From NCBI RefSeq assembly GCF_045037415.1, contig NZ_CP173438.1: DNA of 64,000 nucleotides; one strand, given 5' to 3'. Position numbers: made by a program. Below are positions 39,901-42,900 of this stretch, piece after piece (positions within the stretch are counted from its first letter, which is position 1; each line of letters opens with the position of its first letter). This stretch comes from Escherichia coli. Its GTDB lineage: Bacteria > Pseudomonadota > Gammaproteobacteria > Enterobacterales > Enterobacteriaceae.

Positions 39901-42900
39901 CAGGCACTGGCAATGTATTCCCGCATTGATGCCACCAACTTTGAAGATATTCAGCAATCGGTAATAGAAGTTAAAAACCATCTCGATTTGTTGGGGCAAG
40001 TCTTTTACGAATTTGACAGTCGGGATTATTTTAGTGGTGAGCCACAAGCGCAATTATCCTGCCTCAACCGCGCGGCGGAATTTGTTCTGCGTACCCAGAA
40101 AGTTGAACGTCGTTTTATGGGACTGGTTAAACGCATGAAAGCCGCCTACGACGTCTGCTGCGGCAGCGAAGCATTATCACAGACAGAACGTGACTATATT
40201 CACTATTATCTTGCTGTTCGTTCAATTGTTTTCAAACTGACGAAAGGTGACGCACCGGATGTTACCCAGATGAATGCACGCGTTCGTGAAATGATTGCAG
40301 AAGCGTTAAAAGCTGATGGCGTAGAAGAAATTTATTTTCTTGGCGATAAAAAAGCGGAATCCATCGATATTTTTGACGAAGATTATCTGGCGCGAATTAA
40401 CAAGATCAAACTTCCGGCAACGAAGATCCAGTTATTACAAAAATTACTGGAAAAAGCGATCAGCGACTTCAAGAAAGTGAACCAGTTGCAAGGGATTAAC
40501 TTCACCCGCCGCTTCCAGGCGATTATAGATCGTTATAATGAGCGGCGAGAAGATGATGTACTCAACGGTGAAGAATTCGATACATTCAGTCAGGAAATGA
40601 CCGATATTATCTATGATATTAAAACCGAAATGGGCACCTGGGCCGATTTAGGCATTGATATTGAAGAAAAAGCCTTTTTCGACATTCTTGCTCATATGCG
40701 CGATAAATATCAGTTCACCTATGACGATGAAAAAATGCTGTCACTGGCAAAAGAGATGAAAAGCGTGGTTGACAACACATCTAAATATCCTGACTGGAGT
40801 AAACGCGATGATATTAAAGCGAAACTGAAAGTTGAACTTATTCTGCTTCTACACAAGCATAAGTTCCCGCCAGTAGCGAATGATGATGTTTATATGGGTG
40901 TGCTGGCACAGGCAGAGAATTTTAAAGAACACCATATGAGTTCTTTAAATTAATTATGAAGGCCGGATACACTTTGTTATCCGGCCATTCTGAATTAACG
41001 TTAATTTCCCTTCCAGATCTTTCCAGTAATGCTTTTATTATTTTCTATTTTTAGCTGGACTTTTCCCATATTTACTGATGATATATCCAGGTATTTAGCG
41101 CGATGCGGATGTGTTGGCGCACACCCGCACCGCTCATCACAATCACTATTTATAGGGAATAGCAGTTATGACTGACACGCATTCTATTGCACTACCGTTT
41201 GAAGCAGAAGTCTCCCCGGCAAATAACCGTCAATTAACCGTGAGTTATGCGAGCCGCTACCCGGATTACAGCCGTATTCCCGCCATCACCCTGAAAGGTC
41301 AGTGGCTGGAAACCGCCGGTTTTGCCACCGGCACGGCGGTAGATGTCAAAGTGATGGAAGGCTGTATTGTCCTCACCGCCCAACCACCCGCCATCGAAGA
41401 GAGCGAACTGATGCAGTCACTGCGCCAGGTGTGCAAACTGTCGGTGCGTAAACAAAGGCAGGTGCAGGAGTTTATTGGGGTGATTAGTAGCAAAACGCCA
41501 CGCTAAGTTTCTCTCCCCTTCCCCACACGGGAAGGGGAATTTTCCCCCTCACTCCACATCCTCCCTGCGTAACCCAATATCCCTCAACCGCTCATCACTC
41601 ATCTGCTGTAACACTCGTCGGGTCTGCATTTGCCGCCGCCAACGCCTCACCGCCTGCCAGAGTTGCACAAGTCTGATAAACGGCGTTTTGGCTTTGTTTT
41701 CGTAAAATTCCATCTGCTGCCTCCTCATCTTTCAGAGGCTTCATCATCCGTCTTCTGGCAGTTCACAATACAGATGCAAATATTAGTTTTATTTAACATA
41801 CAGACAGATTAAAACAGCATCTGCATCCGGTTTTTTAGCCTCATCTGTACCGGTTTTTCTCTCTGTATGGTCCAAATAAGGAATACAGCATGACGCGTTA
41901 TCAACATCTGGCGACTCTACTTGCCGAGCGGATTGAGCAGGGGCTGTATCGTCACGGGGAGAAATTGCCGTCGGTGCGCAGCTTAAGTCAGGAGCACGGC
42001 GTCAGCATCAGCACCGTGCAGCAGGCGTACCAGACGCTGGAAACGATGAAGCTCATCACTCCGCAGCCGCGTTCGGGGTATTTTGTCGCACAACGTAAAG
42101 CCCAGCCGCCAGTGCCGCCGATGACGCGTCCGGTGCAGCGCCCGGTGGAAATTACCCAGTGGGATCAGGTACTGGATATGCTGGAGGCGCATAGCGACAG
42201 TTCCATTGTTCCGTTAAGCAAAAGCACGCCGGATGTCGAAACGCCCAGCCTGAAACCGCTGTGGCGGGAGCTAAGCCGGGTGGTGCAGCATAATCTGCAA
42301 ACCGTTCTCGGTTATGACTTGTTAGCCGGTCAGCGAGTGTTGCGAGAGCAGATTGCCCGCCTGATGCTCGACAGCGGCTCGGTAGTCACCGCCGATGACA
42401 TCATCATTACCAGCGGCTGCCATAACTCGATGTCGCTGGCGTTAATGGCGGTGTGTAAACCGGGCGATATTGTCGCGGTCGAATCCCCCTGTTATTACGG
42501 TTCGATGCAGATGCTGCGTGGCATGGGCGTGAAAGTGATTGAAATCCCAACCGATCCAGAAACAGGCATCAGCGTTGAAGCGCTGGAACTGGCGCTGGAG
42601 CAGTGGCCGATTAAAGGCATCATTCTGGTGCCAAACTGTAATAATCCGCTGGGATTTATTATGCCGGACGCGCGCAAACGGGCCGTTCTCTCTCTCGCTC
42701 AGCGTCATGATATTGTGATTTTTGAAGATGATGTCTACGGTGAACTGGCAACGGAGTATCCGCGCCCGCGGACCATTCATTCCTGGGATATCGACGGGCG
42801 AGTGCTGCTGTGCGGCTCGTTCAGTAAAAGTATTGCACCTGGCCTGCGCGTGGGCTGGGTCGCACCGGGGCGCTATCACGATAAACTGCTGCATATGAAA

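Follow-up and report, generated by a model that had tools for sequence, protein, structure and literature searches.

The symE/symR module of Escherichia coli K-12 (yjiW/RyjC; Kawano, Aravind and Storz 2007, PMC1891008) is a type I toxin-antitoxin system with the symR promoter embedded within the symE coding sequence; only for K-12 is it known that DNA damage induces the system, that SymR represses it, and that SymE is toxic (PMC1891008). The immigration control region (ICR) of E. coli is a defence island with interchangeable type I and type IV restriction cassettes, and brnAT, symE-symR, and rpn have been named as toxin-antitoxin systems accompanying these cassettes (EcoSal Plus 2025, PMC12707154; Loenen and Raleigh 2014, PMC3874153). 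The anchors of the ICR are without mobilising activity, and the mechanism of cassette replacement is unknown; GmrSD in the place of McrBC has been mentioned in reviews (PMC3874153, PMC12707154). The subject of this analysis is the symE locus of E. coli contig NZ_CP173438.1 (assembly GCF_045037415.1). The whole stretch analysed, 64,000 nucleotides (nt) of this contig, is referred to as the window.

The region around symE in the window is best explained as a symE/symR type I toxin-antitoxin module located in the ICR (defence hotspot 36), in which the slot between symE and the convergent gene yjiS is empty. According to this explanation, the G+C-rich hairpin between the two genes is the native 3' stem-loop of symE, the empty allele is old, and the K-12 arrangement was derived by cassette exchange. 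The probability of this explanation is estimated at about 0.8; the identification of the locus is much firmer than the role of the hairpin at the RNA 3' end. The symE-yjiS slot holds McrBC together with yjiV and yjiT in K-12 and GmrSD in O157-type strains, and the unoccupied slot of the window is a common natural variant. All of the elements belong to described systems, symE/symR (PMC1891008) and the cassette variation of the ICR (PMC3874153, PMC12707154), and the locus represents already known biology. The main value of the analysis is in annotation: the adjacency of symE and yjiS in E. coli should be interpreted as an unoccupied type IV restriction slot and not, as the initial annotation presumed, as a strain-specific loss of mcrBC. 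Within positions 41000-41750, an A+T-rich promoter with a LexA box is followed by a 34-nt hairpin, the symE open reading frame (ORF), the G+C-rich hairpin, and the end of a convergent ORF. The features are as follows:

41037-41485, + strand: conserved symE/symR module with promoter, LexA box, SymR, and symE codons 1-106 (genome matches and K-12 alignment)
41073-41092, no strand assigned: predicted LexA (SOS) box TACTGATGATATATCCAGGT in the symE promoter (sequence)
41097-41173, - strand: SymR antisense RNA, a type I antitoxin of 77 nt (Rfam RF01809)
41100-41133, no strand assigned: terminator hairpin of SymR, which is also the hairpin in the 5' untranslated region (UTR) of the symE mRNA (alignment to K-12)
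41168-41506, + strand: symE, 112 amino acids, with the C-terminal allele ...ISSKTPR* (ORF, NCBIfam match, K-12 alignment)
41181-41186, - strand: presumed -10 hexamer TAGAAT of symR
41486-41538, + strand: allele-specific segment without a K-12 counterpart, comprising the 3'-terminal 21 nt of symE, the hairpin, and the 7 nt that separate them
41514-41538, + strand: G+C-rich hairpin with a stem of 10 base pairs (bp), TCCCCTTCCC-CACAC-GGGAAGGGGA, followed by AATTTT (folding)
41539-41548, + strand: spacer ATTTTCCCCC, which separates the hairpin from the yjiS stop codon and has variable T and C runs (alignment of E. coli loci)
41549-41713, - strand: yjiS, a DUF1127 protein of 54 amino acids when read from the K-12 start codon (ORF, RefSeq annotations, K-12 alignment)

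The states of the slot were counted in 5,426 complete E. coli genomes:

Empty slot (hsdR end, symE, hairpin, yjiS, and yjiR, matched over at least 80% of a 1-kilobase (kb) query): 916 genomes
73-nt allele-specific segment present: 932 genomes, in 922 of them over at least 80% of its length
symE-mcrB junction (K-12 type): 595 genomes
symE-GmrSD junction (O157 type): 1,286 genomes
5' region of symE present at all: 2,861 genomes

Taken together, the empty, McrBC, and GmrSD states cover about 98% of the symE-carrying genomes, about one third of which are in the empty state. A reading of the arrangement as peculiar to the strain from which the window originates is not supported, given its presence in 916-922 genomes, compared to 595 with the symE-mcrB junction. 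Nissle 1917 and ATCC 25922 are among the strains with the empty state, which also occurs beside a different upstream neighbour, as in strain C012, where hsdS is located upstream of symE. The 73-nt segment is present as a single copy in the 932 genomes and never on a plasmid. It lies beside yjiS in all 40 of the records listed, and beside symE in all but E. coli C. The limits of the module are evident from K-12-type and O157-type genomes, which match only positions 138/139-586 of a query comprising window positions 40900-41900. The module itself (41037-41485) is 84-95% identical among E. coli genomes that differ on both of its flanks.

In K-12, the stop codons of yjiS and symE are separated by 7,583 nt containing yjiT, yjiV, mcrC, and mcrB, whereas the distance in the window is 42 nt. 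The difference from K-12 is therefore real, as the initial annotation had stated, because the direct adjacency of symE and yjiS is absent in K-12. It had also been correctly read from the sequence that symE is directly followed by a G+C-rich hairpin and then by the yjiS stop codon (41514-41538 and 41549-41551). Alignment to K-12 extends over approximately 41017-41485, with 427 of 470 positions identical, and resumes at approximately 41539, from where 309 of 327 positions are identical. The left breakpoint relative to K-12 is located at 41485/41486, inside symE and 21 nt short of its stop codon, and the right breakpoint at about 41539. The 53-63 nt between the breakpoints, which include the hairpin, have no significant match in the K-12 locus or in the GmrSD-type loci examined. 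Even when three mismatches are tolerated, the 32-kb K-12 locus contains no copy of the hairpin, and a short-word BLAST search of the 63-nt segment against 53 loci returned only E. coli loci of the window type, with the remaining hits having E > 1. Thus, the hairpin does lie inside the sole stretch that cannot be aligned to K-12; as a mark peculiar to this strain it is not supported, since 916 genomes share the arrangement.

The distance of 7.58 kb in K-12 as opposed to 42 nt in the window is what makes a deletion attractive: the strain would have lost mcrBC, yjiV, and yjiT from a K-12-like arrangement, and the hairpin would mark the deletion junction or have formed at it. The sequence CCCCCTCA, present at both ends of the K-12 insert, could in principle mediate such a deletion through microhomology. 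However, had the deletion run from one copy of CCCCCTCA to the other, yjiS would now lie beside the K-12 tail of symE and the K-12 hairpin (CTCCCGGT/ACCGGGAG). A chimeric query with these features, the K-12 symE tail and hairpin joined to yjiS, was found in none of the 5,426 genomes. The tail and hairpin of the window differ from those of K-12 and are without K-12 counterparts. Because the 53 nt at 41486-41538 are extra with respect to K-12, a simple deletion of K-12-like DNA cannot yield this segment. Furthermore, the arrangement outnumbers the K-12 junction and also occurs in Citrobacter. The candidate deletion junction was rejected on these grounds, and the loss of the genes from a K-12-like ancestor is highly unlikely; it can be considered largely refuted already.

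Deletions in this region are nevertheless real, and E. coli C provides an example that had to be weighed in favour of the deletion. In E. coli C (NCTC122; L003 8438-9051), a deletion extends from the interior of the type I hsdR gene to the last codons of symE. It removed symE and symR and kept the hairpin and yjiS, with the join reading ...GGGCTAAG. This join is a genuine deletion junction, distinct from the symE-yjiS junction of the window. The 'empty' ICR of E. coli C has a hairpin, spacer, and yjiS identical to those of the window; by contrast, symE and symR are intact in the window and both missing in E. coli C.

The preferred explanation, an old empty allele, is informed by loci outside E. 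coli. A scan for relatives of SymE, using one genome per species, returned 41 loci, and yjiS is directly downstream of symE in two Citrobacter genomes among them. The SymE tail of Citrobacter sp. FP75, ...VISAKTRRQK*, aligns with the ...VISSKTPR* of the window. The FP75 hairpin, TCCCCCTTCA-GTCTG-TGAAGGGGGA, starts 7 nt past the stop codon and has a 10-bp stem and a 5-nt loop, as in the window, with a folding energy of -18.8 kcal/mol. In the second genome, Citrobacter sp. Res13, symE and yjiS are adjacent and an element of the repetitive extragenic palindrome/bacterial interspersed mosaic element (REP/BIME) type occupies the place of the hairpin. Palindromes of this type (GCCGGATAAGGCG...), rather than a simple hairpin, follow symE in several Citrobacter and Pseudocitrobacter loci (L031 4346-4440; L030, L052, L020, L014, and L016).

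The other type of symE 3' end also occurs outside E. coli. E. whittamii has the tail ...AGKQKVA, and slightly different versions of it are present in Pantoea and Kosakonia. The symE stop codon is followed by a hairpin of the type GCTCCCGAC...GTCGGGAGC in E. whittamii, Pantoea, Kosakonia, Raoultella, and C. portucalensis, and the K-12 hairpin CTCCCGGT...ACCGGGAG resembles it. The tails and hairpins of the outgroups, of the Citrobacter FP75 type on the one hand and of the E. whittamii/Pantoea/Kosakonia type on the other, indicate that there are therefore two old alleles of the symE 3' end, each with its own hairpin, and the window has the one that is adjacent to yjiS. The allele with the ...ISSKTPR tail, the hairpin, and the adjacent yjiS is old, and its architecture is common to Citrobacter, while the occupied alleles have ...IAGKQKVA. 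In E. whittamii, the one locus of this type looked at in more detail, a different convergent gene, an ORF of 1,304 amino acids, is located directly downstream of symE (L013 4385-8299); it probably represents one more gene occupying this slot. The sequence just past the E. whittamii symE hairpin is similar in the Pantoea, Kosakonia, and Raoultella loci.

The K-12 insert has a G+C content of 43.9%, compared to 51.7% in the neighbouring yjiN-yjiR block. The 11-mer TTTCCCCCTCA is located about 50-60 nt downstream of the symE stop codon in K-12 (L001 15436-15446), and its copy in the window, at 41541-41551, runs into the yjiS stop codon. It is part of a 16-nt stretch in which 14 positions match between K-12 and the window, and the chance of two short spacers sharing an 11-mer is estimated by us at approximately 1e-3. 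The 8-mer CCCCCTCA brackets the 7.6-kb block mcrB-mcrC-yjiV-yjiT of K-12; its copy on the symE side lies within TTTCCCCCTCA, and the other copy is at L001 7914-7921. The low G+C content of the insert, the presence of TTTCCCCCTCA on the symE side in K-12, and the bracketing by CCCCCTCA suggest that K-12 represents the derived, insertion-bearing state, and that the block entered, or was exchanged into, a site at which symE and yjiS had formerly been adjacent. Three points weigh against this direction of change: it rests on few outgroups, the GmrSD-type locus is without such a repeat, and the postulated precursor of K-12, a K-12-type symE tail beside yjiS, is present in none of the 5,426 genomes.

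Ordinary homologous recombination is the simplest model consistent with the data. The model places one crossover in symE, before codon 106, and a second one within yjiS or past it; the tail of symE and its hairpin would then move along with either the cassette or the empty state. In agreement with such an exchange, symE appears to act as the left recombination anchor of the slot, with its last six or seven codons moving with the downstream content. Neither this anchor role nor the flip of the SymR terminator loop described below changes the current understanding of the system.

The same sequences might instead constitute a site at which defence cassettes preferentially enter, in which the hairpin, the C run, and the TCA at the yjiS stop codon would resemble a recombination site and would not primarily be an RNA element. 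The bracketing of the K-12 insert by CCCCCTCA, with the left copy in the 16-nt stretch that has 14 matches to the sequence preceding yjiS in the window, is compatible with this possibility, as is the occupation of the slot by at least three unrelated cassettes across genera. However, the GmrSD-type locus lacks such a repeat and has its left junction at the symE stop codon; no integrase or transposase adjoins the slot in the loci examined; and a review attributes no mobilising activity to the ICR anchors (PMC12707154, PMC3874153). The differing symE tails better fit ordinary homologous recombination, and a recombination-site-like function of the hairpin is extremely improbable. A related proposal, that the C run and TCA motif by the symE 3' hairpin constitute a recurrent entry point into which the K-12 mcrBC-yjiV-yjiT block was inserted with an 8-bp duplication of CCCCCTCA, is very doubtful. 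If true, it would offer a concrete starting point for explaining how cassettes are replaced in the ICR. A duplicated yjiS-stop motif beside the inserts of two Citrobacter loci (L030 and L052) was considered and dropped, as the C run and TCAC there are the end of a different convergent gene.

The hairpin between symE and yjiS begins 7 nt past the symE stop codon and ends 10 nt short of the yjiS stop codon. It is probably the 3' stem-loop of the symE mRNA. On the + strand it folds at -20.2 kcal/mol (z = -3.46), which 2 of 200 shuffled sequences equal or surpass; on the - strand the energy is -27.4 kcal/mol (z = -4.06), which none of 200 reaches. The 10-bp stem, with seven G-C pairs, has the G+C-rich character of an intrinsic terminator. 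Like the intrinsic (Rho-independent) terminators between convergent genes, the hairpin is stable, G+C-rich, positioned shortly past a stop codon, and flanked by convergent ORFs; it differs from them in failing the consensus scan and in its U tract, with only a short one (AAUUUU) on the symE strand and none on the yjiS strand. A stable hairpin of some kind closely follows the stop codon in each of the symE alleles examined. Its most likely function would be that of a weak intrinsic terminator, or of an element stabilising the 3' end of the mRNA, at the point where symE and yjiS converge, and it would thereby insulate yjiS. A role in terminating symE transcription or in protecting the 3' end of the mRNA is, on balance, modestly favoured.

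Comparison with FP75 provides the structural argument for such a role. In an ungapped alignment of the stems, FP75 differs at both bases in three of the ten pairs, with pairing preserved throughout. In total, 97.5% of cells are paired, compared to 50-78% after the partner columns have been shifted by 1-3 positions.

Several observations count against a functional 3' stem-loop. Immediately after the stem, the + strand reads AATTTTCC and the - strand AGAGAAAC, neither of which is the U tract of an intrinsic terminator, and a consensus terminator scan of 40900-41950, which requires at least five T per eight bases, found no terminator, as the T run is too short. The run consists of four T on the + strand, is reduced to two in several E. 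coli variants (AATTG), and is missing from the - strand and also from the Citrobacter FP75 hairpin. The observed stem pairing is matched by 10 of 500 shuffles, the double changes in FP75 could also result from a C/T-rich run displaced by one base together with a single further change, and the structural conservation is based on the single outgroup sequence of FP75.

The hairpin could instead be a neutral relic without a role at the RNA 3' end, left behind by a former terminator or by a cassette since lost, and still present only because the divergence of the E. coli alleles is recent. The lack of a canonical U tract on either strand, with a T run that is eroded in several variants, agrees with a relic. 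Among seven E. coli genomes with several alleles, the stem differs at a single outer position (G to A), and variation is otherwise seen in the loop (C/T) and in the T/C tract downstream; the stem is nearly invariant within E. coli and hence provides no covariation signal. The REP/BIME element at the hairpin position in other Citrobacter genomes implies that the hairpin is dispensable. On the other hand, the FP75 hairpin retains its position, stem, and loop length, and its ten pairs are intact despite six changed stem bases, a changed loop, and flanks that cannot be aligned to those of the window. Together with the stable hairpin found shortly past the stop codon in every symE allele, this makes a neutral relic unlikely, and a 3' stem-loop of the symE mRNA is the preferred interpretation.

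The hairpin itself has no significant match in Rfam, where the best overlapping models score about 18-20 bits (E = 0.09-0.8), far under their gathering scores. A REP/BIME or other dispersed repeat was rejected as its identity, given a median of one place per genome in the 932 genomes and no occurrence on plasmids. The T/C tract at 41539-41548 occurs among E. coli genomes in the variants TTTTCCCCC, TTTCCCCCCC, TTGCCCCCA, TTGCCCCC, and TTGCCCTC.

The symE gene is conserved at the locus, as had been noted, with an intact ORF of 112 codons for amino acids. The product matches the NCBIfam equivalog NF010128, 'endoribonuclease SymE', over residues 1-110 with 215.9 bits against a cut-off of 132, which identifies it as SymE. 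Over residues 1-109, its identity to K-12 SymE is 90%. The last six codons differ: the tail of the window protein is ...GVISSKTPR* and that of K-12 is ...GVIAGKQKVA*. Unlike the K-12 tail, that of the window resembles Citrobacter tails (...ISAKTRRQK*). Compared to the described K-12 module, the window has the same promoter with a LexA box, a 77-nt SymR over the symE start, and the symR promoter within the coding sequence. It differs in the last 6-7 residues of SymE and in everything downstream, in the reverse-complemented terminator loop of SymR, and in its upstream neighbour, which is the hsdR gene of a type I system with the gene order hsdM, hsdS, hsdR (M-S-R) in the window and the hsdS gene of EcoKI in K-12.

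A LexA box with the pattern CTG-N10-CAG had been placed upstream of symE and is present at 41073-41092, with CTG at 41075-77 and CAG at 41088-90. Nineteen of its 20 bases are identical to the K-12 yjiW/symE site at the homologous position, and it is accordingly predicted to be a LexA operator. The bare CTG-N10-CAG pattern occurs at chance level in the window and is not significant. The stricter pattern TACTG-N10-CAGKW has three matches in the window compared to 0.19 expected, and only the copy at 41073-41092 has an A+T-rich spacer. Support for the LexA site thus derives from its conservation at the homologous position and from the three matches to the stricter pattern. By analogy with the experiments in K-12, transferred by sequence conservation, LexA bound at 41073-41092 would repress transcription of symE until DNA damage occurs.

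The overlap of SymR with the 5' end of symE, which had been expected, was found. SymR matches Rfam RF01809 over 77 of 77 model positions with 83.1 bits (gathering score 61, E = 3.4e-16). It is antisense to symE, covering nt 1-6 of the coding sequence, the ribosome-binding region, and the 5' UTR, and its placement is the same as in the K-12 annotation. The TAGAAT at 41181-41186 is identical to K-12 and lies within the symE coding sequence, 7 nt upstream of the SymR 5' end; it is presumed to be the symR -10 hexamer. As in the K-12 experiments, and assuming that conserved sequence implies conserved function, SymR would be constitutively transcribed from the promoter inside symE, pair with the symE 5' UTR and start codon, and block translation and accumulation of the mRNA.

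The terminator loop of SymR (41114-41119, 6 nt) reads TTGGCG on the symE strand of the window, whereas K-12 has CGCCAA, which is its reverse complement. The segment 41100-41133 is identical to the reverse complement of the K-12 segment at 32 of 34 positions, compared to 26 of 34 in the direct alignment, and this reverse-complemented segment produces a secondary Rfam match to SymR on the + strand. The complementarity between sense and antisense RNA is unaffected by the orientation of the loop. The flip exchanges the loops between the two RNAs, and SymR still scores 83 bits. In 429 genomes, the sequence is at least 99% identical to window positions 41066-41170. None is 95-99% identical, a distribution that fits one discrete allele. 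The K-12 loop is present in six other sampled E. coli loci of the window type (L004-L009). Citrobacter youngae CCUG 30791 (L036) has the same flip, and Pantoea gossypiicola (L049) a similar one. The loop appears to have flipped independently in several lineages. Hairpin-loop inversion through template switching is a known class of mutation.

The genomic setting is that of the ICR. Window positions 25900-56900 are identical across 31,001 nt to the locus of strain 4/1-1, for which the RefSeq annotation gives the gene order yjiA, brnA, brnT, restriction endonuclease, hsdM, hsdS, hsdR, symE, yjiS, yjiR, rpn, mdtM, yjiN. The anchors yjiA and yjiN (or yjiS) thus enclose restriction genes, which places the locus in the ICR. 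The window shares with defence hotspot 36 the chromosomal site, a type I system, an Mrr-like endonuclease, brnTA, symE/symR, rpn, and content that varies among strains; it differs in that the type IV position beside symE is empty in this haplotype. The right anchor of the variable slot is yjiS, with its stop codon at 41549-41551 (TCA on the + strand) and an orientation convergent with symE.

The left, variable flank of the symE module is hsdR:

37690-40953, + strand: hsdR of the type I restriction-modification system with gene order M-S-R (ORF; TIGR00348 HsdR, 470.7 bits; RefSeq annotation of strain 4/1-1)

The NCBIfam matches of this system are generic only (HsdR and HsdM). The hsdM product, encoded at window positions 34682-36298, matches TIGR00497 with 172.8 bits, below the curated cut-off of 242.75. 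By elimination from the list of ICR families in PMC12707154, our guess is that the M-S-R system belongs to Type ID. A 9-bp hairpin, GGCCGGATA-CACTTTGT-TATCCGGCC, is located at 40961-40986, just past the hsdR stop codon (40951-40953) and upstream of the module boundary at about 41037.

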